Both the position numbers and the translations under genes were made by a program. The notes beneath the pieces were generated by a model that was given only the letters and a program-made list of their open reading frames with translations, did not search any database and had not been told where the DNA came from. DNA of 64,000 nt from positions 37,944,001 to 38,008,000 of the forward strand of contig OZ024752.1 in assembly GCA_964016885.1 (NCBI GenBank), written 5' to 3'. Numbering within the stretch: the first letter of the stretch is position 1; every line of letters begins with the position of its first letter. This stretch comes from Eledone cirrhosa. Lineage: Eukaryota. Shown here piece by piece: positions 4,227 to 33,858 of this stretch.

Positions 4227-4295
4227 TTGAATAGCAAGATCGGTAATATTCAAGGCTTCAGTTAACTTTTTTAATATTGCTTTTTGATCATTCAA
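4227..4295 (-). CDS. PROM1: Prominin-like exon downstream of the array: LNDQKAILKKLTEALNITDLAIQ
   Basis: Acceptor ttttattccag, donor gtaagt; 69 nt, phase 0-0, compatible with every cassette. Confidence 0.85.
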
Positions 4296-5057: not shown

Positions 5058-5104
5058 TATCAATAATGCAATTTGAAAGAAAGAGATACATTGTTGTCTA
5101 GCCC

Positions 5105-6095: not shown

Positions 6096-7494
6096 AAATG
6101 AACAGATTTATGATGAAGAACTCTAACCTTAACCAACCCATCTTTTTTAGTGTATAAGGACAGATTGTCTAATGTTTCCTTCCCATCTCAAAACGTTAGG
6201 GTGTGATTTGAGGGAGATTTAGCTACTATTTCCAGCAGGCTGAGCCTCCAAATATCTGCTCCATTGATAATAGCTCAAGATTATTTAACATCTGCTTCCA
6301 ATCTCAAAACATTAGTGTGTGATTTTCAGAAACAAATAAACAACAACAACAGCAGCAACAAAGACAGAGATAAGTGAATATAAAAAATATAAATCAATGT
6401 AAACGTCCGTATAGAGCTAGTAAGCCATGACAGACTAGAAGTATCTAGTACTTCTTACAGTTGAGAAACAAAAAAACAACAACAATATAGACAGAGATAA
6501 GATAATATAAATAAAAAAAGATAATATACATAAAAAAAAAAAACGAAAAAGTGAATATAAAAATAAAATGAAAGAAAAAATTAAATATGAAAGGTTAACG
6601 TGTAGCAAAATATGTATTAAAAAGAGAGAAAGAAAAATAGAAAACAAGGAAGGTGTTAAAGCTGCTAGAAGGTTCTGTTGTTGAATCTTTAGGTAACCTC
6701 CATGTACAATACAACAACATCGAAGTTTTTTAAACTCTTTCCATCTTTGCTAGTGTGGATATCTGAATATAAAATATTTTTAAAATTTCTCATTATATTG
6801 ATTAAAATATGATTAAAATACACAAACAATCCTAAGTTTTGAACAAGAAATGCTAGAAAATGTAAGACTAATTCATAATAAGTTATTGTTTAGCCCATGG
6901 TCAACCCTGATTGATCAGACATATAATCAAAAGTATACCAGTTCTGACCATCCCATCTTTTTTTCCAGACAGTGTATCTCGGATTGCCATTATCCAATGT
7001 ATCTTGACCTTTTTGAAGATGGTATGGAGGAATGTAAGTGAGATTTAGCAACTATTTCTAGCAGGACGAGTGACCACATAGTAGTTATTTTCGTCAGTTG
7101 GTTCAATTATGAAAACAGTGATCGGTGGTTAATAATATCTGAAACTATGAAACCATGGTAAAAAGAGTTGAAAACACTCTTTAGTTGGTCAAGAACATGA
7201 CATCCTTTCTAGTGTTGGAGGTAAACAAGATAAACACATCCTTTCTAGTGTTGGTGGTCAACAGGATAAACATATCCTCTCTAGTGTTGGAGGTCAATAA
7301 GATAAACATATTCCCTCTAGTGTTGGTGGTCAATAAGATACATCCTCTCTAATGTTGGTGGTCAATAAGATAAATACATCCAGTGGTTGGTGTTAGGATG
7401 TGTTTTCAACCACAGAAACCATGCATGCCATGTATGAATACTGACTTGGTTTGTGACAACACTTCCTACACATGCTAGGAGAATGGATGTTAAA

Positions 7495-7599: not shown

Positions 7600-7674
7600 C
7601 CGACTATAATTTGAAATAAGTTTTAGGTCTCGGACATACTTTCTGAGATCATCACAATTAGGACATTTCTTCTC
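7600..7674 (-). CDS. Cassette mini-exon 19: EKKCPNCDDLRKYVRDLKLISNYSR
   Basis: ttttacag/gtatgt, 75 nt, open phase 0-0, CxxC; most similar in pattern to the template segment. Confidence 0.8.
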
Positions 7675-8421: not shown

Positions 8422-8487
8422 CTTAGCAAACCGATCAACAGCTCTTATAAAATCCTCCTCAGTACAAGAATCACAATCCAAGCACGG
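8422..8487 (-). CDS. Cassette mini-exon 18: PCLDCDSCTEEDFIRAVDRFAK
   Basis: ttttacag/gtatgt, 66 nt, open phase 0-0, CxxCxxC. Confidence 0.75.
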
Positions 8488-9499
8488 CTGTAAAATGTTA
8501 TATTTTATTTTTAGAAACATCATATTCTATATGAATCAAGTTAAATTGGGGTGTTAGGCCAAGGACAGTCAATCTATTTAATGATTGACAAAGACTATTC
8601 CCTGGGGCTCTTGTTTATTTTATCATAATCATTACACAGCAATCTCTCTAGTGTTAGTACCACAAAAAATACATCCAGTATACCCTTCAAGGTGGTTGGT
8701 GATAGGAAGGGCATCCAGCAGTACAAACCATACACAAATGGGTTAAAACGAATCTTCAGTTGTATCAAGTGGTCAGTAGCTCTGCTTGAGTAATTTTTCT
8801 TGTATAAAAAACAGCTGCAATTATGTGATGTTCCTTTAGTTTTGTACCCAACTCATGGCGGTAGGATTAGGATGTGTAAGGTCCATATTCTCAGATGAGC
8901 ACAGATCTGGACAATTTCACAATATATGTGGAACATTCGACACTGTTAAGCAACACTAGAGAGTTGCTGATGGACACAGCCCCTTAGGAGTGCATGGCTG
9001 CATTGAATCGGTCGACACGGTGTAAAATAGAAACATCCAGTGATAACCATCAAGGTGTTATTCAGGGATACAGCTAACTTCCTAGTTTGGGAGCTCCAGC
9101 ACCATACAAAGTAGGTGTACTCCACAACATTGTAGACCAAGATAGGGTACTGGTATGTAGGGTGCATGTGCTAGTACCCCATGATAAACATGTCAAGCAG
9201 TGGAGATGGTTGTTCTTCATGGACAAAAGGACTTGAGGTGGTGTCTACCTGTCAGCTTTTAGTTCAATTTTACTCCATTATATAGGAATGGTATCCTATT
9301 GAGGTTAATGCTGAATTGGCGATCAACTTCCTTCAAGTGGAATGTTATATCAGTCATGCTCAGAGTCAATCTCCAGATCTTGAAATATGTTGCCAGTACT
9401 GACTATGTCCGTGAACCCTTCCTACCCTTTGAAGTAAGGGGAATTGATGTTAAATGTTGATGTACAGTGATAATATAATTAGAAGTTTCAGGAACATAC

Positions 9500-9562
9500 C
9501 TGAGATAAATTTTTAAGAGCTTCATCGTATTGAAGTCCTTGACAAATGTCGCAGTCCCATAC
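9500..9562 (-). CDS. Cassette mini-exon 17: VWDCDICQGLQYDEALKNLSQ
   Basis: ttttacag/gtatgt, 63 nt, open phase 0-0, CxxC. Confidence 0.73.
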
Positions 9563-10950
9563 CTGTAAAATGTTATATTTTATGGGAGTCGAGTTAGATT
9601 GTAATGTTAGGCCAAGGACATAATTCTATCCAATGACTGACTCAGACTTATCCCTGGGGCTCTTGTTCCTCTTATTATAATCATGATGCAACAACTTATC
9701 TAGTGTTGGTGCCACAAAAGATACATCCAGTATACCTTTTAAGATGGTTGGTGATAGGAAAGGCATCCAGTAGTAAAAACCATACTGAAAAGAGTTGAAA
9801 GGAGTCTTCAGCTGTGTCAAGTGATCAGTAGCTCTGCTTGAGTAATTTTTCTTGTATAAGAAAAATTACTCAAGCAGAGCTACTGATTAAGCTGTAATTA
9901 TGTGATGTTCCTTAGGTGTTGTCACCAGCTCACGGTGGTGAGATTAGAATGTGTGGGGTCTATATTCTCAGGTGGACAGAGATCAAAGCACTCAATATAT
10001 GTGGAGCATTCTGTACTGGTGAACTACACTACTAAGCTACTGATGGACACAGCACCAAGCAATGTATGCCTGCACTGAATCGGCTGAAGTGTACATAGCT
10101 GGATGAGGGTCACAATGTCACCCTTGAGTGAGGTTTGCACCTGGGATGAGGGCTGTATAGGAGATGACGTACAATTGGGCTGATTAAGATATCTGTTGAC
10201 AGCTAACTCTCCATGTCTGAAGTATGTTGAAATCCAAGTCTCGCAGTTCTGCAATGACATGAGGAATTTAAGACAGTATGACTTTAAGTGTTGTTGGCTC
10301 AGTAGTTGAGAATTGTCAGCCGTCATGGAGCAGATGATTTGGGTCTATTCAGGCATTGGTTATCAACCTATGTGTGTGATGTTCCTTATAGAAAGGTGTA
10401 GGAACAATGCTTGAAAGAACAGGTAGATACTCAGTCTAAGCTGGAGACATCTTGTGATAACCATCAAGGTGTTATTCTGAGATATATCTAGTTTCTTAGA
10501 GTGGGAGCTTCTGCACAATGTAGCAGAGAGATACTCCATAGTAGACTAATATAGGGTACTGGTACGTAAGGTGGCTATGCTAGCACCCAATGGTAAACCT
10601 TCAATACAGTGTAGAAAGTCGTTCCCTGTAGACAACTTTGCAGATAAGGACTTCTAATGTTGTCTGTAAGTCAGCTGTCAGGCCAATTTCACTCAAAGAA
10701 AAGAGTGAGTGGTGTTATATGGGAATGGTATTTCATCGAGGTTAATACTGAACTGGCGATTGGCTTCCTTTAGGTGGAATGACATATCAGTCATTCTTGC
10801 CATGCTCAACTTCAATCTCCAGATCTTGAAATATGTTGCCAGTACTGACTTGGTGTTTGTGAACCCTTCCTACCCTTGCAAGTAAGGAGAACAGATGTTA
10901 AATGATGATGATGTACAGTGACAATGTTATCAGAAGTTTCATGAACATAC

Positions 10951-11016
10951 CTCATTCAAATCATTAATAGCGTTTAAGAAATCATCATCAGTACATTCAA
11001 TGCATTCCTTGCACGG
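10951..11016 (-). CDS. Cassette mini-exon 16: PCKECIECTDDDFLNAINDLNE
   Basis: ttttacag/gtatgt, 66 nt, open phase 0-0, CxxCxxC. Confidence 0.75.
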
Positions 11017-12003
11017 CTGTAAAATGTTACATTTTATTTTTAGAAATCTCATATTTTATACGAGTCAAGTTAGATTATAATGTTAAGCCAAAGACAGTCA
11101 AACTATCTAATAATTGACTCAGACTGATCCCTGGGGCTCTTGTTCCTTTTATTATAATCATGACATGACAACCTCTCTAGTGTTGGTGTCACAAAAGATA
11201 CATCTAGTATACCATTAAGATGGTTGGTGATAGGAAGGGCATCCAGCAGTAAAAACCATATTGAAAAGGGTTGAAAAGAGTCTTCAGTTGTATCAAGTGG
11301 TCAGTAGCTCTGATTGAGTAATTTTTCTTTTATAAATGTGATGTCCCTTAGGACAGAGATCCGGGCACTTAATGTATGTTGAGCAGTCTGTACTGATAAA
11401 CTATACTAACAGGCTGCTGAATGACACAGCATACAGCAGCGCATGGCTACATTGAATTAGCCAACACTGGCCCCAAGTGGTTTATCGCCTGGTTTGAGGG
11501 GTGTAGAACAAATGTCTGAGAGCAGAGGTAGATACTCAGTTGATGTAGGATGGAGACAATCAGTGATAACCATCAAGGTGTTGTTCATGGATATATCCAG
11601 CTTCTTAGAGTGGGAGCTCCTGCACCATACAAGGGAGGTGTACTCCTCAGCACTGTAGACAAAGATAGGGTCCTGGTATGTAGGGTGGATATGCTAGCAT
11701 CCTATGATAAAGCCAATAAGCAGTGTAGAAGGTTGGTCCTTAGTGACACCTTTGCATGTAAGGACTCGAGGTGCTGTCTGTAGCTCAGCTGTTAATGCAA
11801 TTTTACTCCGAGAAAGAAGCGTGTGACATTATATGGGAATGCCATATCAGTCATGCTCAACTTCAATCTCCAGAGCTTAAAATATGTTGCCAGTACTAAC
11901 TTGGTCTTTTATGAACATCTTCCTACCCATGTTAGTAAGGAGAACAGATGTTAAATGATGATGTTGCATATTGACAATGTAATTAGAAATTTAAGTGACA
12001 TAC

Positions 12004-12069
12004 CCGAGATATACTTGCAAGACTTTCTTCAAAATTCAGTCCCATGCAAATACCGCAATCCAATAGCGG
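12004..12069 (-). CDS. Cassette mini-exon 15: PLLDCGICMGLNFEESLASISR
   Basis: ttttacag/gtatgt, 66 nt, open phase 0-0, CxxC. Confidence 0.75.
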
Positions 12070-12716
12070 CTGTAAAATGTTATATTCTATAAGTCAAGTT
12101 AGATTGTAGTATTAGGTCAAGGACAGTCAATCTATCTAATAATCGACTCAGACTGATCCCTGGGGCTCTTGTTCCTATTATAATCCGGACACGATAATCT
12201 CTCCAGTGCTGGTGCCACAAACGATACATCCACTATACCCTCTAAGATGGTTGGTGATAGGAAGGGCATCCAGCAGTAAAAAAACTATACTGAAAATGGG
12301 TAAAAGAAGTCTTCAGTTGTATCAAGTGGTCAGTAGCTCTGCTTGTGTAATTTTTCTTGTATAAAAGGCAACTGCAATTATGTACCTTAGGTGTTGTAAC
12401 TAACTCACAGTGGTAGGGTTAGGATGTGTGTGTCCATATTCTCAGGTGGCCAGAGATCCTGGTACTCTCTCAAAATATGTGGAGCATTCTGTACTGGTGA
12501 ACCATACTAGCAGGCTCCTGCTGGACACAGCCCCCTGTGGTGAATCATGCCGTATCAGTCATCTTTGCCATGCTCAGCTTCAATCTCCAGATCTGGAAAT
12601 ATGTTGCCATTACTAACTTGGTGTATGTGAACCCTTCCTACCCTTTCAAATAAGGAGAACAGATGTTAAATGACAATGATGTACAGTGACAACAATTAGA
12701 AGTTTCACGAACATAC

Positions 12717-12773
12717 CTTATTATTAGGTAATTTCGGTTTGTGTTTGTTACAAAATCTGCAATGATCATTCAA
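12717..12773 (-). CDS. Cassette mini-exon 14: LNDHCRFCNKHKPKLPNNK
   Basis: ttttacag/gtatgt, 57 nt, open phase 0-0, CxxC. Confidence 0.72.
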
Positions 12774-13928
12774 CTGTAAAATATTATATTGTATATAAGA
12801 CAAGTTAGACTGTTATGTTAAGCCAAGGACAGTCAATTTATCCAATGATTCTCTCAGACTGATCCCTGGGGTTCTTGTTCCTTTAATTAATCATGACAAC
12901 ACCCCTAGTGCTGGTGTCACAAAAACTACATCCAGTTAAGGTGGTTGGTGATAAGGAAGGCATCCAGCTGTAAAAACAATACTGAAAATAGTTGAAAGTT
13001 TTCAGTTGTGTCAAGTGGTCAGTAGCTCTGCTTGAGTTATTCTTTTATAAGAGACATCTGCAATTATGTGATGTCCCTTAGGTGTTGTAAGCAGCTTATG
13101 GTGGTGGGGTTAAGAAGTGTGGGGTCCATAATCTCAGGTTGACAGAGATCAAGGAACACTCTCAATATATGCTGAACAGTCTGCACTGGTGAGCTACCCT
13201 AACAAGCTCCTGATGGTCACAGCCCCCAGCAATGCATAGCTGCCTCAAATTGGCCAACACTTGTGTGTAGCTGATTCAGGGACCCCCACTCCTTGTAAGG
13301 GTGGTTAGGACCTTATTGGGGGGTGACATTCAATAGGGCAGATCAAGATGTCTCTCTCCATGTCTGAAGTATGTTGAAATCTGTGTCTCACAGCTCTGAA
13401 ATGTCATGAGGGATTTATGGCAGTAAATGATTAAGTGCTGTAGGCTCAGTAATTGAGAATTCTCAGCCATGTCATGGAGCAGATGACTTGGGTCTATTCA
13501 GGCCTTGGTTTTCAACCTACGTGTATGATGATCCAGCACCATACAGGAGGTGTAATCCACAGCACTGAAGATCAAGATAGGGTACTGGTATGTGGGGTGG
13601 ATGTGCTAGCACCTCATGATGAACTTGCCAAGCAGTGTAGAAGGTTGTTGTTCACAGACACCTTTGTATGTAAAGACTCGAGGTGGTGTCTTCGATCAGC
13701 TGTGAGTCCAATTTCATCCCCAAGAAAGATGATTTGGTGATTGACTTCATTCAGGTAGAATGCCATATGAGACATCTATGTCATGCCCAGCTTTAAACAC
13801 CAGGTCTTGAAATATGTTGCCAATACTGATTTTGTGTTTGTGAACCCTTCCTACCCTTGCAAATAAGGGGAACAGATGTTAAATGATGATGTACAGTGAT
13901 AATGTAATTAGAAACTTCAGGAACATAC

Positions 13929-13994
13929 CCGAGTTAAATTCTTTATTTCTTTGTTAAAATTAAAATCACTGCATATACTGCAATCCTTGTGAAT
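13929..13994 (-). CDS. Cassette mini-exon 13: IHKDCSICSDFNFNKEIKNLTR
   Basis: ttttacag/gtatgt, 66 nt, open phase 0-0, CxxC. Confidence 0.75.
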
Positions 13995-15330
13995 CTGTAA
14001 AATGTTATATTGTCAAGTTAGATTGAAGTGTTAAGCCAAGGACAGTCAATCTATCTAATAATCCCTGGGGCTCTTGTTCCTTTCATCATAATTACGACAC
14101 GACAACCTCTCTAGTGCTGGTGCCATGAAAAATACATCCAGTATACCCTCTAAGATGGCTTGTAATAGAAATGGCATCCAGAAGTATAAACCACACTAAA
14201 AAGAGTTGAAAGTGATCAGTAACTCTGCTTGAGTTATTTTTTTTTGTGTAAGTTACAGCTGCAATTATGTGATGTCCCTTCGGTGTTGTAACCAGCTCAC
14301 GGTTGTGAGATTAGGATGTGTGGAGTCCATAGTCTCAGGTTGAAAGAGATCTGGGCACTCTCTCAATATATGCTGAGCAGTCTGCACTGGTGAACTACCC
14401 TAACAAGCTCCTGATGGACACAGCCCCCAGCAATAAATGGCTGCATTGAATTAAGTGACCACAGTATGTGGCTGATTAGGGACAACCACTGCCCCACTAA
14501 TAGATGTAGCTCCCAGGAAGTGGGTCCTATTGGAGTTGACACTCAATTAGGCACATGAAGATGTTTGTTGCTAGCTCGCTCTCTATGTCTGAAGTATGTT
14601 GAAATCTGTGTCTCGTAGCTCTGCAGTGTCACGAGAAATTTAGGACAGTATGAGATCAAGTGTTGTTGGCTCAGTAGTTGAGAATTGTCTGCGGTGTCAT
14701 GGAGCATATGATTTGGGTCTATTGAGGCCTTGCTTATAAACCTATGAGTGTGATGTTCCTTATGAAAAGGTGTAGGAAAAATATGTGAGAGAACAGGCAG
14801 ATACTTGGTGCAAGATGGAGACAGCCAGTGATGACCTTTAACGTGTTGTTTAGGGATATATTAAGCTTCTTAAAGTGGGAGCCCTTGCACCATTCAGGGG
14901 ATGTATACTTCACAGCAATGTAGGCCATAATAGGGTACTGGAATGTAGTGTGGATGTGCTAGCACCTCATGATAAACCCGCCAAGCAGTGTAGAAGGTTG
15001 TTGCTCATTGACACCTTTGTATATAAGGACTTAAGGTGCCATGAGGTAAGTCAGCTCTCAATCCAATTTTTCTCTGAGATATGATTGCATGGCGTTATAT
15101 ATGAGTGGTGTGACATTGAGGTTGACGCTGAGCTGGTAATTGGCCTCCTTAGTATTCAGCTGGACTATTGGATTCATTGATTTTGCCACACAAAGCTCCA
15201 ATCTGCAGATCTTGAAATATGCTGCCAGTGCTGACATGTTTGTGAACCCTTCCTACCCTTTCAAGTAAGAAAAACCTATGTAAAATGATGTTGTACAGTG
15301 ACAGCATAATTAGAAACTTCAGGAACATAC

Positions 15331-15414
15331 CGGGGTAAAATTTGAACTCAAAATTTCTTCTTCTTCTATTTCTGAGGCATCATAAAAGTCACAATCAGTG
15401 CAAAATACGAATAT
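15331..15414 (-). CDS. Cassette mini-exon 12: IFVFCTDCDFYDASEIEEEEILSSNFTP
   Basis: ttttacag/gtatgt, 84 nt, open phase 0-0, CxxC; seen at end of ORF 15319..15534. Confidence 0.75.
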
Positions 15415-16089
15415 CTGTAAAATGTTACATCTTATATTAGTCAAGTTAGATTGTAGTGTTAGGCCAAGGACAGTCAATATATAATGATTGGTACAGAACG
15501 ATCCCTGGGCTCTTGTTCCTTTTATCATAATCATAACACAACAAACTCTCTAGTGTTGGTGCCACGAAAAATAGATCCAGTATACCCTTTAAGGTGGTTG
15601 CACTTCATGATAAACCTTCCAAGCAGTGTAGAAGGTTGGTTGTCATGGACACCTTTACATGTAAGGACTCAAGGCGCTGACAGTAGGTCAGCTATCAGTC
15701 CAATTTCACTCCAGAAAGGAGGGTGTAGCGTTATATGGGAATGGTATCCCATTGAGGTTAATGTTGATCTGGCGATTGGCTTCCTTCAGATGGAATGACC
15801 TATTAGTCATCTTTGCCATGCTCAACTTCAATCTCCAGATCTTGGAATATGTTGCCAGTACTGACTTGGTGTTTGTGAAGCCTTCCTACTCTTGCAAGTA
15901 AGGGTAATGGATGTTATATAATGAAGATGTACAGTGATAATGTAATTAGAAGTTCCAGGAACATACCTCATTTACACTTTGTACTGACTTGGTGTTTGTG
16001 AAGCCTTCCTACTCTTGCAAGTAAGGGTAATGGATGTTATATAATGAAGATGTACAGTGATAATGTAATTAGAAGTTCCAGGAACATAC

Positions 16090-16152
16090 CTCATTTACAC
16101 TTTGAACATGGTCAGGGAAGTTGAATCCCGCACAAAAACCGCAGCTCAATTC
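16090..16152 (-). CDS. Cassette mini-exon 11: ELSCGFCAGFNFPDHVQSVNE
   Basis: ttttacag/gtatgt, 63 nt, open phase 0-0, CxxC. Confidence 0.75.
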
Positions 16153-17077
16153 CTGTAAAATTGTATATTTTATACGAGTCAAGGTAGATTATAGTGTTAG
16201 GCCAAGGACAGTAAATTTATCGAATGATTGACTCTGATCCCTGGGACTCTTGTTCATTTTATTTCAATCATGATACGGCAAACTCTCCAGGGTTGGTGTC
16301 ACGAAAAATACATCTGGTGATAACCATCACGGATATGTCTAGCTTCTTTGTGTGGGAGCCCCAGCACTATACTGGAGAAGTGTACTTCACAGCACTGTGA
16401 GGGCCATATTCTCAGGTGAGTAGATACATGAGCACTCTCTCAATATATCTTGAGCATTCTGTACTGGTGAACTACACTAGCAAGCTGGTAATGGATACAA
16501 TCACCAGCTGTGCAAGGCTGCATTGAATTGGCTTAGACCAGGGTGAGGCTTATTCGGGGAAACTCGCTCCCTCTAAAGGAGTTTAGTGACTGTCGTAAGG
16601 CGTGTAGGAAAAATATCTGAGAGAACAGGTAGATACTCAGTGTAAGATGGAGACGAGTAATAACCATCAAGGTGTTGTTTAGGGATATATCCAGCATCAT
16701 ACAGGGGAGGTGTAATCCACAGCACTGAAGATCAAGATAGGGTACTGGTATGTAGGGTGGATGTGCTAGCACTGCACCATATATCTAACAAGCAATGTAG
16801 AAAGTTGTTGCTCATAGACACCTTTGTACATAATGATTCAAGGTGATGTCTATTGGTCAGCTGTCTTAAGGTTATTGCTGAACTGGCAATCGCCTTCCTT
16901 CAGGTGGAATGTTATATCATTCATTTGTGTCATGCTCAGCTTGAATCTTCAGATTTTGAAATATGTTGCCAGTTCTGACTTGGTGTTTAGGAACCCTTCC
17001 TACCCTTGCAAGTAAGGGCAATGGATGTTAAATGATGTTGTACAGTGACAATATAATTAGAACTTTTGCAAACATAC

Positions 17078-17140
17078 CATATTATTGTATTCAGCTCTTT
17101 CAAAATCCCATTTCGTACAGTTTTTACAATGCTGGTACTT
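17078..17140 (-). CDS. Cassette mini-exon 10: KYQHCKNCTKWDFERAEYNNM
   Basis: ttttacag/gtatgt, 63 nt, open phase 0-0, CxxC. Confidence 0.75.
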
Positions 17141-17845
17141 CTGTAAAATATCATATTCTATGAGTCAAATTAGATTATAGTGTTAGACCAAGGATAGATA
17201 ATCTATCTAATGATTGACTCAGACTGACCCCTAGGGCTCTTGTTCCTTTTATTATAATCATGACAGGACAACCTCTCTACTTTGGGTGTCTCTAAAAATA
17301 CATCCAGTATATTCTTTAAGGTGGTTGGTGATAGGAAGGGTATTTGGCAGTACAAACCATACTGAAAAGGGTTGAAAGGAGTCTTCAGTTGTCTCGAGTG
17401 GTCCGTAGATCCGCTTGACTATTTTCTCTCATATAAGATACAGCTGCAATTATGTAATGTTCCTTAGGTGTTCTCACAAGCTCACAGTGGTGGGATTAGA
17501 ATGTGTGAGTTCCATATTCTCATGTGGGCAGAGATCCAGCCACTCAATATTTGTCGGGCTTTCTGTACTGGTGAACTACACTACTAAGCTACTGACAGAC
17601 ACAGCACCAAGGAGGGCATGCCTACTTTGAATTGGGCAATATCTGTGTGTAGCTAATTCAGGGAACCCACTCTCCCCAAGCAAGATAGCTACTGGAAAGT
17701 GGATCCTATTTATGATGACATTCCATATGTTGATAGTTCTGAGTTGCTGTTTGCAAACCCTTCCTACCTTTGCAAGTAAGGGGGAACAGATGTTAAATGA
17801 TGATGATGTATAGTGACAATGTAATTAGAAGTTTCATGAACATAC

Positions 17846-17911
17846 CTCAGTAAATTCTGTAATAGCTTCATCGCAAGCGTGTCTGTTACACAGAGAGCAA
17901 TCCATGTATTG
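17846..17911 (-). CDS. Cassette mini-exon 9: QYMDCSLCNRHACDEAITEFTE
   Basis: ttttgcag/gtatgt, 66 nt, open phase 0-0, CxxC; seen at end of ORF 17834..18034. Confidence 0.75.
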
Positions 17912-18999
17912 CTGCAAAATGTTATATTTTATATTAGTCAAGTTAGATTGTAGTGTTAGGCCAAGGACAGTCAATCTATCTAATGATTGACACAGAATGA
18001 TCCCTGGGGTCGTTGTTCCTTTTATTATAATCATGACACAACAAACTCTCTAGTGTTGGTGCCATGAAAGATACATCCAGTATACCCTTTAAGATGGTTG
18101 GTGATAGGGTGAGCATCCAGCAGTAAAAAGAGTTGAAAGGAGTCTTCAGTTGTATCAAGTGGACAGTAGCTCTACTTGAGTAATTTTCCTTGTATAAGAG
18201 ACAGCTGCAATTATGTGATGCCCCCTAGGTGTTGTCACCAGCTCACGGTAGTGGGATTAGGATGGGTGAGGTCCATATTCACAAGTGGGCAGAAATCTAA
18301 GCACTCTCTCAAAATACGATGAGTATTCTGCACTGGTGAACCATACTAGCAGGCTCCACCCCAGCAATGCATGGCAGTAGAATCTGTCAACCTGGTGTGT
18401 GCAACTGATTCAGGGACACCCTCTGAGACTGAGGAAGGTTATCGCCTGGTTTGAGGGGTGTAGGAACAATGTGTGAGAGAACAGGTCGATACTCAGTCTA
18501 AAATGGAGACAGCCAGTGATAACCATCAAGGTGTTGTTTAGGGATATATCTAGCTCCTTTGTGAGGGAGCTCCAGCAGCATACATGGGAGGTGTACTCCA
18601 TAGAACTGTAGACCCAGATAGGGTACTGGTATGTATGGTGGATGTGCTTGCACCTCATGATAAACTTTCCAAGCAGTATAGAAGGTTGGTCATCACGGAC
18701 ACCTTTGCATATAAAGACTCAAGTCGCTGACGGTAGGTTAGCTGTCAGTCCAATTTCACTCCAAGAAAGGAGGGTGTCGTGTAATATCGGAATGGTATCC
18801 TATTGAGGTTAATTCTGAACTGGCAATTGGTTTCCTTCAGGTATCAATCATGCCCAGCTTCAATCTGCAGATCTTGAAATATGTTGCCAGTATTGACTTG
18901 GCTGTTTGTGAACCCTTCCTACCCTTGCAAGTAAGGGAAATGGATGTTAAATGATGATGTTGTACAGTGACAATGTAATTACAAGTTTCATGAACTTAC

Positions 19000-19065
19000 C
19001 CCAACAAAATGTTTCTTAGTCTTTTCATAACTGTGTCTCCCACAATAAATGCAATTTTGGAATTT
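19000..19065 (-). CDS. Cassette mini-exon 8: KFQNCIYCGRHSYEKTKKHFVG
   Basis: ttttacag/gtaagt, 66 nt, open phase 0-0, CxxC. Confidence 0.75.
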
Positions 19066-19739
19066 CTGTAAAATTTTATATTTTATATTTTATATTTAAA
19101 AATGCTATATTTTACATAAGTCAAGTTAGATTGAAGTGTTAGGCCAAGGACAATCAATCTATCCAATGATTGACTCAAAATACTCTCTGGGGCTCTTGTT
19201 CCTTTTATTACAATCATGACACAACAACCTCTCTAGTGCTGGTGCCACAAAATATACATCCAGTATAAACCACACTGAAATGGGTTAACAGGATTCTCCA
19301 GTTGTATCAAGTGGTCAGTAGCTCCAGTAGCACTGTAGATCAATTTAGGGTACTGACATGTAGGGTGGATATGCTAACACCCCATGGTAAACCTGCCAAG
19401 CAGTATAGAAGGATGATCCTCAAGGGCACCTTTGCACTTATGAACTTGAGCCACTGTCCATTGGTCAGCTGACAGTCCAATTTCACTTCAAGAAAGAAGG
19501 GGGTGGCATTATATGGGAACGCTATCCCATTAAGGTTAATGCTGACATAGTGATTGGCTTCCCTCAGGTGGAATGACAGTCATCTTTGTCATGTTCACCT
19601 TCAATCTCCAGATCTTGAAATATGTTGCCAGTACAGACTTGCTGTTTGTGAAGACTTCCTATCCTTGCAGGTAAGGGGAACAGATGTTAAATGATGATGA
19701 TGTACAACAACAATGTATTTAGAAGTTTCGCAAACATAC

Positions 19740-19805
19740 CTGACTTAAAGTAGAAACTTTTCGATTGTAATTGAGTCCTTCACAAATACTGCATTCCAAT
19801 TCCTC
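19740..19805 (-). CDS. Cassette mini-exon 7: EELECSICEGLNYNRKVSTLSQ
   Basis: ttttatag/gtatgt, 66 nt, open phase 0-0, CxxC. Confidence 0.75.
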
Positions 19806-20961
19806 CTATAAAATGTCATATTTCACACGAGTCAAGTTAGATTATTGTGTTAGGTCAATCTATCCAATGATTGACACAGACTGATCCCTGGGGCTCTTGT
19901 TCCTTTCATTATAATCACGACACGACAACCTCTCTAGTATAGGTGCCATGAAAAATACATCCAGTACATCCTTCAATGTGGTTGGTGATAGGAAGGGCAT
20001 CCAGCAGTACAAAATATACTGAAAAGGGTCGATATTCTCAGGTGAGCAGAGATCCGGCGGATACCTTCACAATATATCTTGAGCTTTCTTCCCATGCAAA
20101 CCACACTAGCAAGGTGCTGATGTACACAACCCCCGGTGGTGAGTGGTTGCATGCCTTATCAGTCATATTTGTCATATTCAGCTTCAATCTCTTGGGTCTA
20201 TTCAGGCATTGGTTATCAACCTATGTCTGTGATGTTCCAAATGAAAAGGGAGGGAACAATACCTGAGAGAACAGGTAAATACCTGGTGTAAGATGGGGAC
20301 ATCCAGTGATAACCCTCAAAGTGTTGTTTAGGGATATATCTAGCTCCTTTGTATGGGAGCCCCTGCACTATACAGGGGAGGTGTACTTCACAGCAATGTA
20401 GATCCAGAAAAGGTACTGGTATGTAGCTGTGCTAGCACCCTATGATAAACCTGCCAAGCAGTGTAGAAGGTTGTTCCTTGTAGACACCTTTGCACATAAG
20501 GACTCGTGATGGTGTTTATAGGTCAACTGTCAGGCCAATTTCACTAAAAAAAAGGAGTGGTGTTATATGGGAATGGTATTCCATCGAGGTTAATACTGAA
20601 CTGGCAATTGGCTTCCTTCAGGTGGAATGACATATCAGTCATTCTTGCCATGCTCAACTTCAATCTCCAGATCTTGAAACATATTGCCAGTACTAACTTG
20701 GTGTTTGTGAACCCTTCCTATTCTTGCAAGTTAAATGATGATGTGCAATGATAATTGTTTCTACATTTGGCACAAGGCCAGCAATTACCCAGTACATTAC
20801 TGGTACTTTATTTTATCGACCATGTAAGGATGAAAGGAAAATTTAACCTCGGCAGGATTTGAACTCAGAACGTAAAGGGACGTAACTATGCTGGAAAGCA
20901 TGGCGTCCACGGCCCTTGATGATGTACAATGATAATGTAATTAGAAACTTCATAAACATAC

Positions 20962-21039
20962 CGGAGTAAGATGTGAAGTATCTCCTCTGGCTTTGGCAAT
21001 CTCTCTGTTATCAGTACAATTATTGCAAGCCATGTACCA
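20962..21039 (-). CDS. Cassette mini-exon 6: WYMACNNCTDNREIAKARGDTSHLTP
   Basis: ttttacag/gtatgt, 78 nt, open phase 0-0, CxxC. Confidence 0.75.
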
Positions 21040-22423
21040 CTGTAAAATGTTATATTGTATACAAATTAAGTTAGACTATAGTGATAGGATAAAAGACAGT
21101 CAATCTATCTAATGTTTGGCACAGAACAATCCCTGGGGCCCTTGTTCCTTTTATTATATATAATCATAACAACAACCTCTCCTGTGTTGGTGCCATAAAA
21201 AATAGATCCAGTATATCCTTTAAGGTGATTGGTGATAGGAAGGGCATCTGGCAGTACAAACCATACTGAAAAGGGTTGAAAGGAGTCTTCAGTTGTATCA
21301 AGTGGTAAGTAGCTTTGCTTGAGTAATTTTTCTTGTATAAGAGACAACTGCAATTATGTGTTGTCACCAGCTCACAGTGGTGGGATTAGGATGTGTGGGG
21401 TCCATATTCTCGGGTGAGCAGATATATGGGCAATATAACTTGAGCATTCTGTACTGGTAATGGATGCAACCACCAGCTGTGCAAGGCTGCATTGAATCGG
21501 CTGAGACCAGGGTGAGGCTTATTCAGGGAAACTCGCTCCCTCTAAAGGAGTTTAGTGACTGTGGTGAGGTGTGTAGGAAAAATATCTGAGAGAACAGGTA
21601 GATACTCAGTGTAAGATGGAGACAGCCAGTAATAACCATCAAGGTGTCGTTTAGGGATATATCTAGCTTCTTTGGGTGGGGGCTCCAGCATCATACAGGG
21701 GAGGTGTAATCCACAGCACTGAAGATCAAGATGGGGCACTATTATGTAGGGTGGATGTGCTATCACCCCATGATAAACTTTCCAAGCAGTGTAGAAGGAT
21801 GGTCCTCAGGGGGACTTTTGCATGTTTAAGACTTGAGCCGCTGTCTGTAGGTCAGCTGTCAATCCAATTTCACTCCAAGAAAGGAGAGTGTGGCGTTAAA
21901 TGGGAATGGTATCCCATTGAGTTTAATGCTGAACTGGCAATTGGCTTCCTTCAGGTGGAATGCCATATCAGTCATGCTCAGCTTCACTCTCCAGATCTTG
22001 AAATATGTTGCCAGTACTGAATTGGTGTTTGTAGGAAACAACACATCACCCAGTTCAATTTTCAGACCGGGTGATGTGTTGTTTCCTTGAGCAAAACACT
22101 TTATTTCACATTGCTCCAGTTTACTCAGCTGTAGAAATGAGATGATAGGGACTGGGGTCCCTATCATTCCACTGCAAAGTGGTCATGGAGGTGTCACGGC
22201 AAAAAAACACCCAGCACTCACTGTAAATGAGGTTGGTGTTAGGAAGGGCATCCAGCTGTAGAAATCAAGCCAGAATCAGTTCCCGTCCCACCCTTGCAAG
22301 CAGGGAAAAGCGGACATAAAATGATGATGATGATGATGAACCCTTCCTACCCTTTCAAGTAAGGGAAACAGATGTAAAATGATGATGTACAGTGACAATG
22401 TTATTAAAACTTCAGGAACATAC

Positions 22424-22489
22424 CTCAGTTAATTTCCTCATATCTGTTTCAAAATCAAGATCCTCGCAAGTTTTGCAATCATTGTACAT
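22424..22489 (-). CDS. Cassette mini-exon 5: MYNDCKTCEDLDFETDMRKLTE
   Basis: ttttacag/gtatgt, 66 nt, open phase 0-0, CxxC. Confidence 0.75.
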
Positions 22490-23258
22490 CTGTAAAATGT
22501 TATATTTTATACGAGTCGAGTTAGCTTGTAGTGTTAGGCCAAGGACAGTCAATCTATGTCATGATTGACTGATCCCTGGGGCTCTTGTTTCTTTTATTAT
22601 AATCATGACAGGACAACCTCTCTAGTGCTGGTGCCATGAAAAATACATCCAGTATACCCTCTAAGATGGTTGGTGATAGAAATGGCATCCAGTTGTAAAA
22701 ACCATATGAAAAAAGGTTGAAAGGAGTTTTCAGGTGTATCAAGGGGTCAGTAGCTCTACTTGAGTTATTATTCTTATATAAGATACAGCTGCAATTATGT
22801 GATGTCCCTAGGTGTTGTAAACAGCTCACAGTGGTGAATTAGAATGTATGGGGTCCATATTCTCAAGTGGACAAAGATCCAGGTACTCTCTCAATGTATG
22901 TTGTGCAGTCTGCACTGGTGAACTACCCTAACAAGCTCCTGATAGTCACAGCCCCAGCAATCCATATCTTCATTGAATTGGCTGGCACTTGTCTGTAGCT
23001 GATTCAGGGACCCCCACTCCCTGTAAGGGTGGTTAGTGCTTTATTGGAGATGACATTCAATAGGGCAGATCAAGATGTCTCTCTCCATGTCTGAAGTATG
23101 TTGAAACCTAAGTCTTGCAGCTCTGCAGTGTCATGAGAGATAGGACAGTATGAGATCAAGTATTGTTGGCTCAATAGTTAAGAATTCTCAGCCATGAGAG
23201 TAAATGATGATAATGATGATGTAGATTGACAATTTAATTAGAAGATTCACAAACATAC

Positions 23259-23324
23259 CTGAACAAAATGTTCATCAATTTTTTCCAGAGTATGGTCCGT
23301 ACAATTTTTACAATGCTGGTATTT
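23259..23324 (-). CDS. Cassette mini-exon 4: KYQHCKNCTDHTLEKIDEHFVQ
   Basis: ttttacag/gtatgt, 66 nt, open phase 0-0, CxxC. Confidence 0.75.
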
Positions 23325-23852
23325 CTGTAAAATGTTATATTGTATATGAGTCAAGTTAGATTATAGTGTTAGGCCAAGGACGGTCAATCTATCCAATGAT
23401 TGACACAGACTGATCCCTGGGGCTCTTGTTCCTTTCATTATAATCACGACAAAACAACATCTCTAGTATAGGTGCCATGAAAAATACATCCAGTACATCC
23501 TTCAATGTGGTTGGTGATAGGAAGGGCATCCAGCAGTACAAAATATACTGAAAAAGGCTCGATATTCTCAGGTGAGCAGAGATCCGGCGGATACCTTCAC
23601 AATATATCTTGAGCTTTCTTCCCATGCAAACCACACTAGCAAGGTGCTGATGTACACAACCCCCAGTGGTGAGTGGTTGCATGCCTTATCAGTCATATTT
23701 GTCATGCCCAACATCAATCTCCAGTTCTTGAAATATTTTGCCAGTACTGACTTGGTATTTGCGAACCCTTCCAACCCTTGCAAATAAGGGGAACAGATGT
23801 TAAATGATGATGTTGTACAGTGACAATGAAATTAGAAGTTTCAGGTACATAC

Positions 23853-23918
23853 CTTAGTAAAATTTTCTACATCTTCATCACAAGCATGTTTGTCACAAAT
23901 AGAGCAATCCATGTGTTG
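23853..23918 (-). CDS. Cassette mini-exon 3: QHMDCSICDKHACDEDVENFTK
   Basis: ttttacag/gtatgt, 66 nt, open phase 0-0, CxxC. Confidence 0.75.
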
Positions 23919-24546
23919 CTGTAAAATGTTATATTTTATGAGTCGAGTTAGATTAGTGTTAGGCTAAGTACAGTCAATCTTTCTAATGATTGACTCAGAC
24001 TGTACCCTAAGGCTCTTATCCTTTTTATTATAATCATGACTCAACAACCTCTCTTATGTTAGTACCATGAAAAACGCATCCAGTATACCCATCGAGGTGG
24101 TTGGTGATAGGAAGGGCATCCAGTAGTATAAACCATACTAAAAAGAGTTGAAAGGAGTCTTCAGTTTTTAGGGTTCTGGTATGTAGGGTAGATAAACCTG
24201 CAAATCAGTATAGAAGGTTGTTGCTCATTAACACTTTTGCACGTAAGGAGTCGAGGTGGTGTCGATTGTCAGCAGTCAATCCAATTTCACACAGAAAGAA
24301 GGGTGTGGCATTATAGGGGAATGGTATCCCACTAAGGTTAATGTTGATCTGGTGATTGGCTTCCTTCGGGTGGAATGACATATCAGTCATTCTTGCCATG
24401 CTCGGCTTCAATCTCCAGATCTTGAAATATGTTGCCAATACTGACTTGGTGTTTGTGAACCCTTCCTATCCTTGCAAGTAAGGAGAACGGATGTTAAATG
24501 ATGATGATGTACACCCATAATGTAATTAGAAATTTCAGGAACATAC

Positions 24547-24603
24547 CTTAGCAAAATCTTCAAGATGAATTTTGTAATCTTTTTCACTGCTATTCATGTA
24601 CAG
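24547..24603 (-). CDS. Cassette mini-exon 2: LYMNSSEKDYKIHLEDFAK (no Cys)
   Basis: ttttacag/gtatgt, 57 nt, open phase 0-0. Confidence 0.68.
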
Positions 24604-25938
24604 CTGTAAAATGTTATATTGTATATAAGTTAAGTTAGATTATAGTGTTTGTCCAAGGACAGTCAATCTATCGAATGACTGACTTAGACTGATCCCTGGG
24701 GCTCTTGTTCCTTTTATTATAATCACGACATGACAATCTCTCTAGCATTATTGCCACAAAAGATACATCCAGTATACCCTTTAAGGTGGTTGGTGAAAGG
24801 AAGGGCATCCAGCAGTAAAAAACTATACTGAAAATGGGTGAAAGAAGTCTTCAGTTGTATCAAGTGGACAATAGACCTGCTTGAGTAATGTTTCTTGTAT
24901 AAAAGGCAACTGCAATTATGTGATGTCCCTTAGGTGTTGTAACCAGTTCATGGTAGTGGTATTAGAATGTGTTGGGGTCTATATTCTGAGGTTGGCAGAG
25001 ATCCAGGAACTCTCAATATATGTTGAGCAGTCTGCACAGGTAAACCACACTGACAAGCTGCTGATAGACAACCCCCAGCAGTGAATGATAGCATTGAATC
25101 AGACATCACCTGTGTCTAGCGGATTCAGAGACCACCACTTCCTGTAAGGGAGGTCAGCGCCTGGAGAGAGAATTGTATGGAGGATGATATTCAATAGGGA
25201 AGATCAAGATGTTTCTCTCCAAGTCTGAAGTATGTCAAAGTCTGTGTCTCGCAGCTCTGCAGTGTCATGAGATTTAGGACAATATTACTTTAAGTGTTGT
25301 TGGCTCAGTAATTGAGAATTCTCAGCCATGTCATGGAGCAGATGATTCAGGTCTATTTAGGCCTCGGTTATCAACCTACGTGTGTGATGTTCTCTATGAA
25401 AAGGTGAATGAACAATGTTTGAGAGAACAGATAAATACTTAGTGTAAGATGGAGACATCCAGCGATAACCATCAAGGTGTTGTTTAGGGATATATCTAGC
25501 TCACATACAGGGGAGGTGTACTTCACAGAACTGAAGATCAAGATATGTACTGGTATGTAGGTTGGATGTTCTAACACCTCATGATAAACCCGCCAAGGAG
25601 TGTAGAAAGTTGTTGCTCATTGACACCTTTCCACGTAATGATTGAAGATGGTGTCTATTGGTCAGCTGTCAGTTCAATTTCACTCTGAGAAAGAAGGGTG
25701 TGTTGTTATATGGGAATGGTATCCCATTAAGGTTAATGCTGAACTGGCAATCGCCTTCCTTCAGGTGGAATGTTATATCATTCATCTGTATCATGCCCAG
25801 CTTGAATCTTCAGAGTTTGAAATATATTGCCAGTTCTGACTTGGTGTTTGAGAACCCTTCCTACCCTTGCAAGTAAGCGGAACAGATGTTAAATGGTGAT
25901 GTACAGTGAAAATGTAATTAGAAATTTCAGGAACATAC

Positions 25939-26004
25939 CAGTCGAAAATCTCTTACGGCTTTTGCAAAACCGGGTCCAGCACAATCTTTGCAATCCATGA
26001 TCCA
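25939..26004 (-). CDS. Cassette mini-exon 1: WIMDCKDCAGPGFAKAVRDFRL
   Basis: ttttacag acceptor, gtatgt donor, 66 nt, open phase 0-0, CxxC. Confidence 0.75.
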
Positions 26005-26127
26005 CTGTAAAATGTTTATTTTTTATAGGAATCAAGTTAGATTAAATTGTTAAGCCAAGGAAAGTCAATCTATCAAATGATTGACTCAGACTGATCCCTG
26101 GGGCTCTTGTTTCTTTTATAATAATCA

Positions 26128-27712
26128 CTAGCATTAAAGCTCGGCGTTGCTCGGGGTCATTAAGTTACCAAAGTTAGGTTGCACCACCCATTTTATGGCA
26201 GCACTTTTCTGGGTGAATGAATTGCAGACCTAGAAGCATGAGCTGTGCCAGCAGTGACAATTATAGTTTCGCCTATGGATATTATCTCTGTGCAAAAAAG
26301 TGCTGAAATTTATTGTTTCACAGTACTTGCGCAACACACGGGTAGACAATACCAGCCGAACAACAGAGCTGCGATGGAGTTGTTCTGCATGGTTGTCTGT
26401 GTGTTTTATAAATTTAAGACAGTAGGGAGGGTTATGATATGAGGGAGAGTTAGCTGCTGTTTCTAGCAGGTTTAGTAACCTCATAGAGGATATGTGTTTT
26501 CTAAATTTAAGACAGTAGGGAGTGGTGTGATATGGGGGAGAGTTAGCTGCTGTTTCTAGCAGGTTTAGTGACCTCATAGAAGATATGTTTTCTAAATTTA
26601 AGACAGTAGGGAGGGTTGTGGTATGGGGGAGAGTTAGCTGCTGTTTCTAGCAGGTTTAGTGACCTCATAGAGGATATTATTGTTTATCATTATCTATAAA
26701 AGGCAGATTGTTGTTGTTGTTGTGTGTGTGCACATGTTCCATGTTTATACATTTGCACAATTTCAAACCGATTCGACTCAAAGTCTGTAAGAATCCACGT
26801 TCGTTGAGAGGTTTTAAAAAAGATTTATCGCTTGTTGTTGAATAAATGTATCTGTTGCTTTTGAATAATTGTCGTTTCGTATGAAATGTAATAATTGTTT
26901 CTACTTTTTTGGCACAAGGCCAGCAATTACCCAGTACATTACTGGTACTTTATGTAATAATAAACGTTCTCTCTCTCTCCCTCTCACTCTCTTCTCTCTC
27001 TCTCTTCGGCAATCACGCACGTTGTTTAATTGCTTTAAATGTTGTTAATGAATAGTTGTGTATTCATGGTTATAAATCCCACACGTTGTTTAATTGCTTT
27101 AAATGTTGTTAATGAATAGTTGTGTATTTGTGGTTATAAATCCCACACGTTGTTTAATTGCTTTAAATTTTTTTTTATCAATTTATGTGAGTGTGTGTTT
27201 GTATGTGTTTGTAAATAAATCAGTAAGTTTGAAGCAACTAAAAGTTAGTGTGGTTATAAATCACGCACGTTGTTTAATTGCTTTAAATGTTTTTTTATCA
27301 TTTGAAGTGAGTGTGTGTTTGTATGCGTTTGGAAATAAATCAGTAATTTTGAAGTATAAAAGAGAAAGTAGCAAAATGTGTGGGTTGTAGATAGAGGTAA
27401 GCAGATGATATGAGAGAGTAAAATGGACAGTATCACCATCAAGCTTGGAAAGAGAAAGTAGCAGAAAGTATGAAGTTGTATAGATTTTGAATGGTAGTGG
27501 AAAGAGTTTAGCAGTTTAAATGAGAGAGAAAAATCGTAAAATATTGAGTTTTATCTATTTTTTGCGTAATTGTGGGTGAAATTGAAAAAATTATATGTGC
27601 CAAGACGCAATCGAAGCTATTTCGAATACTGAATTGTAAATTTCAATTGAAGAAATTCTATATCGTAGATTTCTATAACAAAGGAGCATGTCCATACACT
27701 GAGCTTTATAGA
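26128..27712 (-). mobile_element. Non-autonomous Helitron inserted in the first array spacer, with internal tandem repeats
   Basis: Minus strand begins tctataaagctc and ends ccgagcaacgccgagctttaatgCTAG|T; splits the array motif ataatca|..tgacacaac. Confidence 0.7.
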
Positions 27713-28320: not shown

Positions 28321-28517
28321 CATACTAAAATTTGCAACAACGTCTGAAGACATGACATGGCTCCTGAGTATACTACAATTGCTGCAATTTACCAACCGCT
28401 CGAGAATGACACGTTTTATGTGAGTCAAGTTATATTGTAGTATTCGGCCAAGCTCAGTCAATCTATCCAGTGATAGAGTCAGATCCTTCAGAGGACCTCT
28501 TAGTCCTTCTAATTCCG
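28321..28517 (-). CDS. PROM1: Prominin-like exon, template of the cassette array: (T)ELEGLRGPLKDLTLSLDRLTELGRILQYNLTHIKRVILERL|VNCSNCSILRSHVMSSDVVANFSM
   Basis: Acceptor tttttttttag, donor gtatgt; 197 nt, phase 1 to 0; internal candidate donor gtaaat at 28392-28387. Confidence 0.88.
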
Positions 28518-29279: not shown

Positions 29280-29363
29280 TTTCTCCAAATTTATTTATTT
29301 TATCCAATACTCTAGTTACACCGATGCTCTTATCAAGTGAGTCCATAGACATATTAACAGCAT
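29280..29363 (-). CDS. PROM1: Prominin-like exon: (H)AVNMSMDSLDKSIGVTRVLDKINKFGE
   Basis: Acceptor ttttgttatttag, donor gtaagt; 84 nt, phase 1 to 1, open frame. Confidence 0.85.
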
Positions 29364-33652: not shown

Positions 33653-33858
33653 AATATGATTGTGGTGAAAATAACAATAAACGTAGCGTAGCATCTTCTT
33701 TTATATCGAGCATTTTTGGGATCATGTTTCCTTCTTCGTCCTCCACATTTATTTAGGTTTCGACAACAGCACAGGCAAAAGCCAATAAGAGGTATTACTA
33801 CAACAAAGACAATCCCAATGGCAACACAGATAGCAAAGCCAATGAGATACCTCAGTGC
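33653..33858 (-). CDS. PROM1: Prominin-like exon with TM1, Cys-rich loop and start of TM2: [68 protein letters not shown]
   Basis: Prominin-type PLIGxxxCCCRxxxKCGG signature; acceptor cattgcag, donor gttagt; phase 0 to 2. Confidence 0.93.

Follow-up and report, generated by a model that had tools for sequence, protein, structure and literature searches.

A tandem array of 19 mini-exons in an octopod prominin-1 gene, probably derived from one truncated exon duplication

Introduction

How did 19 small and mutually unlike exons come to stand in a row inside the gene of an old five-pass membrane protein, and what might they do there? The question is raised by the window analysed here (the whole stretch of DNA, 64,000 nucleotides), the minus strand of which encodes the prominin-1 orthologue of an octopod. 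Prominins have been described as crossing the membrane five times and forming two large extracellular loops (PMC11405016), and the ink proteins of O. vulgaris are reported to include prominin-1-A peptides (PMC10142993). An earlier, sequence-only reading of this locus had proposed that the mini-exons arose by duplication of a whole exon, followed by loss of the old acceptor and intronisation of the 5' part of the exon. Duplication with recruitment of a latent splice site is a described route of intron gain (PMC3443670), and the gain of an intron by such a duplication has been described for potato RdRp (PMC4974935).

Results

The prominin gene and its array of mini-exons

The TM exon at 33676-33858 matched the Pfam Prominin profile (PF05478) with an E value of 6e-16 and 58 bits, against a cut-off of 34.3, and it was 71% identical to O. 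sinensis prominin-1-A. The prominin exons located by HMM and tblastn in the window and the 60 kb downstream were colinear over profile positions 92 to 790 and covered the membrane segments and both large extracellular loops, the N-terminal exons lying outside this mapping. In a gene tree of 573 columns, this prominin nested with the octopod orthologues (support of 91). The gene was fast along its whole mapped length in this lineage (1367-33855 in the window and the downstream loci), with a branch of 0.62 versus 0.04-0.24 in four octopod orthologues. Its membrane and cytoplasmic parts were 59-63% identical to two outgroup cephalopod proteins, whereas the values for other octopods were 68-75%. 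A second, distant prominin-like TM exon (45% identity) was found on another contig (219636308-219639460) of the 3.0 Gb genome.

A total of 19 units were identified on the minus strand between positions 7600 and 26122, flanked by a 197-nt prominin exon (hereafter the template) and the next constitutive exon. Each unit consisted of an intronic relic followed by a mini-exon bounded by AG and GT (Table 1), and the unit periods varied from 594 to 1462 nt. The mini-exons were 57-84 nt long (19-28 codons); all 19 were multiples of three, open in frame 0 and of phase 0-0, and the CxxC motif was kept in 18 of them. Their summed coding capacity was 422 aa. Every relic detected by blastn had an intact mini-exon directly after it. 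A genome search with one unit returned at least 18 matches, with 18 of 18 inside the window. DNA contigs from three runs of one sample spanned the array with few differences; being genomic, these contigs covered the introns, carried no splice joints and were uninformative on expression.

Table 1. Features of the octopod prominin-1 array, in window positions; mini-exons are numbered c01 to c19 in the order of transcription
Feature	Position	Strand	Relic	Details
Upstream constitutive prominin exon	29280..29363	-		84 nt, phase 1-1; tblastn/HMM to cephalopod prominins, splice sites read
Template exon	28321..28517	-		197 nt, phase 1-0; tblastn/HMM, alignment to units
Template part homologous to relics	28399..28517	-		alignment
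Template part homologous to mini-exons	28321..28398	-		alignment
Candidate donor-like site TTG/GTAAAT in template	28387..28395	-		phase 0, cut at 28393
Template's downstream intron segment	27706..28320	-		intronic part of repeated unit; end within dispersed repeat
Inserted unrelated sequence at first junction	26128..27705			about 1.6 kb, no homology to units
Mini-exon c01	25939..26004	-	26005-26122, broken	66 nt, CxxC
Mini-exon c02	24547..24603	-	24604-24720, broken	57 nt, the only one without CxxC
Mini-exon c03	23853..23918	-	23919-24031, broken	66 nt
Mini-exon c04	23259..23324	-	23325-23441, broken	66 nt
Mini-exon c05	22424..22489	-	22490-22600, broken	66 nt
Mini-exon c06	20962..21039	-	21040-21157, broken	78 nt
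Mini-exon c07	19740..19805	-	19806-19912, broken	66 nt, TAG acceptor
Mini-exon c08	19000..19065	-	19066-19211, 29-nt insertion, broken	66 nt
Mini-exon c09	17846..17911	-	17912-18028, open in old frame	66 nt
Relic of c09	17912..18028	-		117 nt, 67% identity to template 5' part
Signals of c09 relic		-		YTRAY with branch A at -32, acceptor TTTTGCAG, repeat junction at about 18030
Mini-exon c10	17078..17140	-	17141-17255, broken	63 nt
Mini-exon c11	16090..16152	-	16153-16265, broken	63 nt
Perfect tandem duplication, 2 x 123 nt	15858..16104			last bases and donor of c11 copied, acceptor not
Mini-exon c12	15331..15414	-	15415-15528, net -3, open	84 nt
Mini-exon c13	13929..13994	-	13995-14089, broken	66 nt
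Mini-exon c14	12717..12773	-	12774-12889, broken	57 nt
Mini-exon c15	12004..12069	-	12070-12181, broken	66 nt
Mini-exon c16	10951..11016	-	11017-11155, 22-nt insertion, broken	66 nt
Mini-exon c17	9500..9562	-	9563-9678, 1-nt loss, broken	63 nt
Mini-exon c18	8422..8487	-	8488-8626, 22-nt insertion, broken	66 nt
Mini-exon c19	7600..7674	-	7675-7791, TAA at 7711-7713	75 nt
Continuation of dispersed repeat past last unit	7150..7220	-		original intron beyond breakpoint; alignment with 16 dispersed copies
Downstream constitutive prominin exon	4227..4295	-		69 nt, phase 0-0; tblastn/HMM, splice sites

The 123-nt tandem duplication was backed by a junction-spanning contig and an approximately twofold depth in all three DNA runs of the one sample, which ruled out an assembly artefact. 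It gives c11 a second donor 123 nt downstream, and the longer exon would hold stops. Further repeats in the window included 23 tandem copies of a 49-nt unit that derives from part of a common dispersed repeat (56776-57908) and, in the intron that follows the array, an 11/22-nt x 45 minisatellite (5099-6096). The insert at the first junction had loosely similar 15-nt ends, which might be a decayed target-site duplication.

The prominin-1-A proteins of O. sinensis, O. vulgaris, O. bimaculoides and Argonauta hians are orthologous and carry the same two-Cys segment, and this segment was single in all 28 cephalopod prominin sequences inspected, many of which are isoforms of a few genes. Searches of the open literature on octopus prominin, invertebrate prominin splicing and octopus micro-exon arrays brought up no comparable array.

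Relics of the template exon upstream of the mini-exons

All 19 relics (approximately 117 nt) aligned to the first 119 nt of the template with 60-76% identity and z-scores of 8.9-18.1, calculated from 200 shuffles each, none of which reached the real score. The colinearity claimed by the sequence-only reading for the ~110 nt upstream of the mini-exons is thus borne out in every unit. When frame breaks (a stop or frameshift) were tallied upstream and downstream of the AG, they were present in 17 of the 19 relics and in none of the 19 mini-exons (Fisher p 1e-8), in agreement with the proposal that only the distal part stays coding. The individual breaks named earlier, in the relics of c17, c18 and c19, were all present (Table 1). 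The relics had accumulated 18 indel events, only two of them multiples of three. A stop at codon 27 was common to ten copies (TAA in nine, TAG in one), so the breaks are not all independent. Two relics, those of c09 and c12, were still open.

Measured against their majority sequence, the relics departed by 10.1, 8.2 and 7.6% at the three positions of the old codons, with no codon-position pattern, and the omega value in the old frame was 1.18 (p 0.41 against 1, with stops and gapped codons masked). The flat codon-position rates and this omega value indicate that the relics evolve as non-coding DNA, and support the conclusion that they are now without coding constraint. The claimed intronisation of the 5' part is consistent with this mode of evolution, although the stretch cited for it, 17912-18025, is itself still open. 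The 22-29-nt insertions in the relics of c08, c16 and c18 repeat an acceptor-proximal motif and shift TCTAAC farther from the AG, so that the putative branch A falls at -54 or -61 in these copies instead of about -32.

A shared junction at the 5' edge of the copied exon

In all 19 units, the repeat of the template's downstream intron (to approximately 27706) switched at one point to exon nucleotide ~1-5. The end of this intron segment falls within a dispersed repeat, 16 copies of which, taken from other contigs, continue in the same way as the sequence after the last unit (approximately 7150-7220); this continuation was absent from the unit junctions inspected. The upstream intron of the template gave no blastn match in the array at E<=1. 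The shared junction, the repeat continuation found only after the last unit and the lack of an upstream-intron trace argue for one duplication that started at the 5' edge of the exon. The duplication likely ran from this edge to a point in the next intron and left the old acceptor behind; judging from the junctions, the old acceptor was probably never copied into the unit, or was lost once. The 19 mini-exons go back to the tandem copying of one prominin exon together with part of its downstream intron, and we regard a single duplication as their likely origin. The origin by exon duplication proposed earlier is thereby retained, but the order of events, a whole-exon copy and then the loss of its acceptor, is less well supported by the shared 5'-edge junction and the missing trace of the upstream intron, although a whole-exon copy with one early deletion would give the same product. 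Microhomology at the junction was considered and dropped because the dispersed copies continue differently; the similar bases on the template side of the first junction may come from the 1.6-kb insertion. Unit c01 was excluded from the upstream-repeat identity.

The events can be ordered as follows. A single tandem duplication from the 5' edge of the exon would have placed the old acceptor outside the unit, and a latent acceptor 119 nt inside the copied exon would then have been taken up (predicted use). The front 60% of the copied exon would decay from this point, and its distal 40%, of 19-28 codons, would stay in frame. The founder may have tuned its last 15 nt into an AT-rich CAG acceptor, and the unit may afterwards have expanded in a burst. 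The template intron was 81.5% identical to the introns of the copies, which were 82% identical among themselves, and the flank trees were star-like, with internal branches of 9-13%. A template intron as near as the copies are to each other, together with star-like trees, points to such a burst. A recent 123-nt duplication within the array likewise copied a donor without an acceptor.

Splice signals and the direction of change

The sequence-only reading had derived the new acceptor from a template segment, and the alignment was in line with this: the template's ATTCTCGAG aligned to ATTTTACAG in 17 of the 19 copies, to TTTTGCAG in one and to TTTTATAG in one. The template's TATAAC aligned to TCTAAC in 15 of the 19 relics, so the proposed correspondence held, but the direction of change was probably the opposite of the one assumed. 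In five octopod orthologues, compared as proteins, the residue at the TCTAAC codon was Ser in four, Thr in one and Tyr in none. The Ser in four of five orthologues suggests that TCTAAC is ancestral and the template's TATAAC (Tyr) derived; the branch-point-like TCTAAC would already have been present in the ancestral exon, and the template would have moved away from it. At the acceptor codon, Argonauta has Glu, O. bimaculoides has Asp and the three other orthologues differ, which gives a hint of a GAG-to-CAG direction. With regard to a possible latent splice site, the copied exon presents branch-point-like Ser-Asn codons that are ancestral at the protein level and a CAG that looks gained, the orthologues being available as proteins only.

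The majority sequence of the copies matched the five octopod orthologues at 19-21 of 36 residues, and the template at 16-18 of 36. In a hand tally of the differing codons, the orthologue residue was kept by the copies at seven, by the template at five and by neither at five. By these comparisons, the template as it stands today is sister to the copies and did not give rise to them in its present form. Two of the five template-ancestral codons lie at the junction and three at the new acceptor; the latter all fall among the five final codons, and each has the backing of a single orthologue. Their position would be expected if the founder had tuned this stretch into an acceptor. From the copies' majority, the 5' part of the template deviated at 29 of 108 nt (15 replacement and four silent codons), whereas its intron deviated at 13.7% (p 2e-4). 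The template may have drifted, or been pushed, away from the branch-point and acceptor signals; the reading frame would be shifted if the template itself were spliced at the inner acceptor, so the loss of the signals there would be favoured.

The acceptor columns -9..-1 and donor columns -1..+6 showed a pairwise identity of 0.89-1.00, against 0.38 at exon positions +1..+9; at the acceptor, conservation stepped from 0.88 over the last 18 intron bases to 0.38 over the first nine exon bases. The mini-exon donors matched U1 at 6-8 of nine positions. The mini-exon acceptors carried a 4-T tract only, whereas most constitutive exons of the gene have long T tracts.

Diversification of the mini-exons

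The identity among copies was 85% in the relics and 82% in the introns, versus 49% (nucleotides) and 21% (amino acids) in the mini-exons. Codon models were run on 22 columns, eight of the 30 codon columns having been removed because fewer than 14 sequences covered them. They gave an omega of 1.6 overall (p 0.0025), or of 2.1 at 86% of sites, with a value near 0.04 for the two Cys (p 2e-4). Without the Cys, omega was 2.3-2.7 on three trees, compared to 1.18 in the relics. These tests used 20-22 columns, an alignment that is uncertain and in-house likelihood code, and their values can be inflated by conversion. Nei-Gojobori counting was less clear than the codon models (pN 0.52, pS 0.48, with pN above pS in only 98 of 171 pairs), and 34 of 93 comparisons at fourfold sites of the mini-exons differed. 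The Phe column was hydrophobic in 17 of 17 sequences, a hydrophobic pattern reached in six of 2000 neutral simulations, and the neutral probability of 19 open frames at this divergence was approximately 2e-7 by simulation. From these results, we infer that the mini-exons diversified by selection on the protein.

The synonymous tree length was 4.4 in the mini-exons, compared to 1.3-1.6 in the relics and 3.2 in the introns, the latter value including 0.8 from one probably misaligned branch. A synonymous length fixed at 2.4 was rejected (p 0.003), whereas one fixed at 3.2 was not. Since synonymous divergence exceeds that of the flanks, part of the contrast between exons and flanks may be due to flank homogenisation, some of which is likely to have taken place. 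The gene-wide fast evolution in this lineage means that relaxed constraint also contributes to the divergence of the mini-exons. The introns after c03 and c06 were 91% alike and the relics of c04 and c07 93% alike, with unlike exons in c04 and c07; such mosaic units (23325-23852, 19806-20961) point to conversion or to unequal exchange within the units.

Of all copies, c19 is the most orthologue-like in appearance, and the length of its part after the Cys pair equals that of the template. The prominins of O. sinensis and O. vulgaris differ by three substitutions and three gaps; one 2-residue gap and one substitution fall just before the Cys pair. Another cephalopod prominin cluster has a Lys/Gln difference near the same Cys pair. 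The spot before the Cys pair may be labile across cephalopods.

Predicted splicing mode and place in the protein

The template is of phase 1-0 and the mini-exons of phase 0-0, so the phase shared by the members of a Dscam1-type cluster is not found here. A phase 0-0 mini-exon cannot replace the template except by way of a candidate internal donor, and only a phase-0 donor can precede it, most simply the template's own. On these phases, it is an evenly balanced proposition that the mini-exons follow the template's donor as optional add-on modules. Each add-on would consist of a Cys-x2-Cys loop and a short amphipathic stretch at a predicted loop turn. An AlphaFold2 prediction for the O. sinensis orthologue (mean pLDDT 69.5, pTM 0.46; helix positions were used) places C298 and C301 in the first large loop, where the long helix 244-292 ends. 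The helix lengths suggest that the mini-exons map to the predicted membrane-distal turn of the first large extracellular loop. No solved prominin structure was retrieved by sequence search, and a fold search gave weak TTYH and long-helix matches only, with TM below 0.25. A protein search with the template exon gave no match among 122 candidates. Axolotl mucin-1, the sole match among 1.84 billion representatives, was rejected as a chance hit, its SEA repeats sharing a short Cys motif.

The candidate donor-like site TTG/GTAAAT lies two codons before the first Cys of the template. It has the best U1 match of the template's 12 internal GT sites (six of nine positions), equal to that of the template's own donor. 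In a search for docking and selector elements with ungapped scoring, the real score exceeded all 20 shuffles in two of the 18 combinations of region and element. The docking candidate at ~6301 did not rise above the genomic background: equal scores were found at 26 sense and 18 antisense places in approximately 100 kb outside the array, since the element is a repeat tail. An inverted pair was present in the intron of each unit, and the template intron lacked a good 5' arm.

Alternative readings of the origin and use of the array

The whole exon may have been copied with its acceptor and used for a time as an alternative exon, until one deletion before the expansion removed the acceptor. This course would yield an identical final sequence, and the differences of the copies' majority from the template and the orthologues at several codons (the five template-ancestral ones) do suggest change on the founder branch; most relics also retain a phase-1 CAG ~90 nt upstream of the acceptor, though it is open only in c09. 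We nevertheless consider it improbable. It needs two events, the array holds no trace of the upstream intron, and three of the five founder changes fall in the new acceptor itself. Moreover, the template intron is as near the copies' majority as the copies are (13.7% versus 13.1%), so a founder phase can only have been short unless the introns were converted. A truncated duplication from the exon's 5' edge therefore remains our preferred origin. It is very unlikely that the mini-exons are simply old, free of constraint or out of use, with a variability that is only apparent because conversion and unequal crossing-over homogenise their repeat-filled flanks. The raised synonymous divergence and the mosaic flanks would be expected from this, but all 19 mini-exons are open and of a length divisible by three, 18 keep CxxC, their splice sites are nearly invariant and conservation changes sharply at both exon edges. 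The low neutral probability of 19 open frames and the omega above 1 within the mini-exons also speak against disuse.

With regard to the splicing mode, the template could be cut at its internal donor-like site, so that one mini-exon replaces its Cys-x2-Cys segment and up to 20 interchangeable tips result. This concerns the mode of splicing and is compatible with an origin by truncated duplication. The site at 28393 is in the needed phase and place, GTAAAT was read as a donor at another exon of the gene, and the template's hydrophobic pattern is kept in the mini-exons. In addition, the Val codon of the site is absent from the orthologues inspected, and no mini-exon has a GTA codon there. However, the site was chosen post hoc in an exon that has changed much in recent times, it has no +5G, and the docking and selector search yielded nothing above background that could enforce a one-of-n choice, which makes a swap of this kind rather doubtful. 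The shared phase and open frames of the mini-exons, the U1 matches of their donors and the failure to detect an exclusion mechanism would also suit an inclusion of all or most of them together, giving a long constitutive loop extension of Cys-x2-Cys modules of up to 422 aa. Against it stand the short T tracts of their acceptors and the fact that structural stalk repeats would be expected to evolve more slowly than introns, whereas the mini-exons evolve several times faster; joint inclusion is accordingly hard to favour. Optional add-on modules spliced after the template's own donor remain the reading that we carry forward.

Discussion

The array resembles described cases of intron gain by tandem duplication (PMC3443670), in which an exon-intron boundary is duplicated, a formerly exonic splice site is recruited and part of the exon becomes intron; here too, the duplicated segment holds formerly exonic sequence that is now intronic. 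It differs from them in its 19-fold amplification, the change of phase from 1-0 to 0-0 and the fast diversification of the part that was kept. Compared with the account of potato RdRp (PMC4974935), the arrangement is reversed, with the predicted acceptor recruited and the donor inherited.

As in the arthropod Dscam1 clusters (PMC3236188, PMC6071210), short homologous exons stand in tandem and encode part of an extracellular region. The Dscam1 copies are described in these sources as whole alternatives, made mutually exclusive by docking/selector pairing, whereas the prominin copies are truncated, unlike the template in phase, and ungapped scoring found no docking site above background for them. 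According to PMC3236188, comparisons between paralogous Dscam exons gave no sign of positive selection, at low power. The schistosome micro-exon genes and SmVAL6 (PMC4350168) share with the array small symmetric exons and repeat-rich introns; their described raised dN/dS in exposed parts and variation by exon choice can be likened to the prominin array. All 19 mini-exons are symmetric (3n, phase 0-0, 57-84 nt). According to the same source, the coding regions of micro-exon genes are mostly micro-exons, and these genes are seemingly restricted to flatworms; here, the exons of 57-84 nt are inserted into a prominin gene that is otherwise ordinary and encodes an old five-pass membrane protein, and the parent exon adjoins them. 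By this comparison, the array is not a micro-exon gene, but in principle it would work like one. The tandem duplicated exon substitutions of human and fly (PMC9741552) are likewise homologous tandem exons, enriched in membrane proteins. They are described as mostly ancient and conservative, whereas the prominin array is lineage-specific, large and reduced to 21% amino acid identity.

A bolder proposal, which we regard as unlikely, would make the outer tip of prominin-1 in one octopod lineage a switchable, positively selected display, in which splicing swaps in one of 19 disulfide-closed tips. The truncated duplication would have changed the phase, and the parent exon would have lost its latent branch point while an internal donor arose in it; the outcome would be a repertoire for recognition or as decoys, built without whole-exon copies or docking sites.

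The schistosome micro-exon genes and the Dscam clusters are known as arrays, whereas here the parent exon stands beside its copies. Since the sequence still shows the parent exon and the decayed 5' parts of its copies, as well as the breakpoint and the original continuation of the intron, the birth of the array can be traced step by step: one truncated duplication would turn an asymmetric exon into symmetric modules that can be stacked. The results indicate strong diversification at one extracellular spot of prominin-1. To our knowledge, the extracellular partners of prominin-1 are poorly known; strong diversification at one spot makes the presence of a ligand or pathogen there a testable idea. 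If the mini-exons are spliced in, the array would let a cell vary the predicted outer tip of a surface protein.
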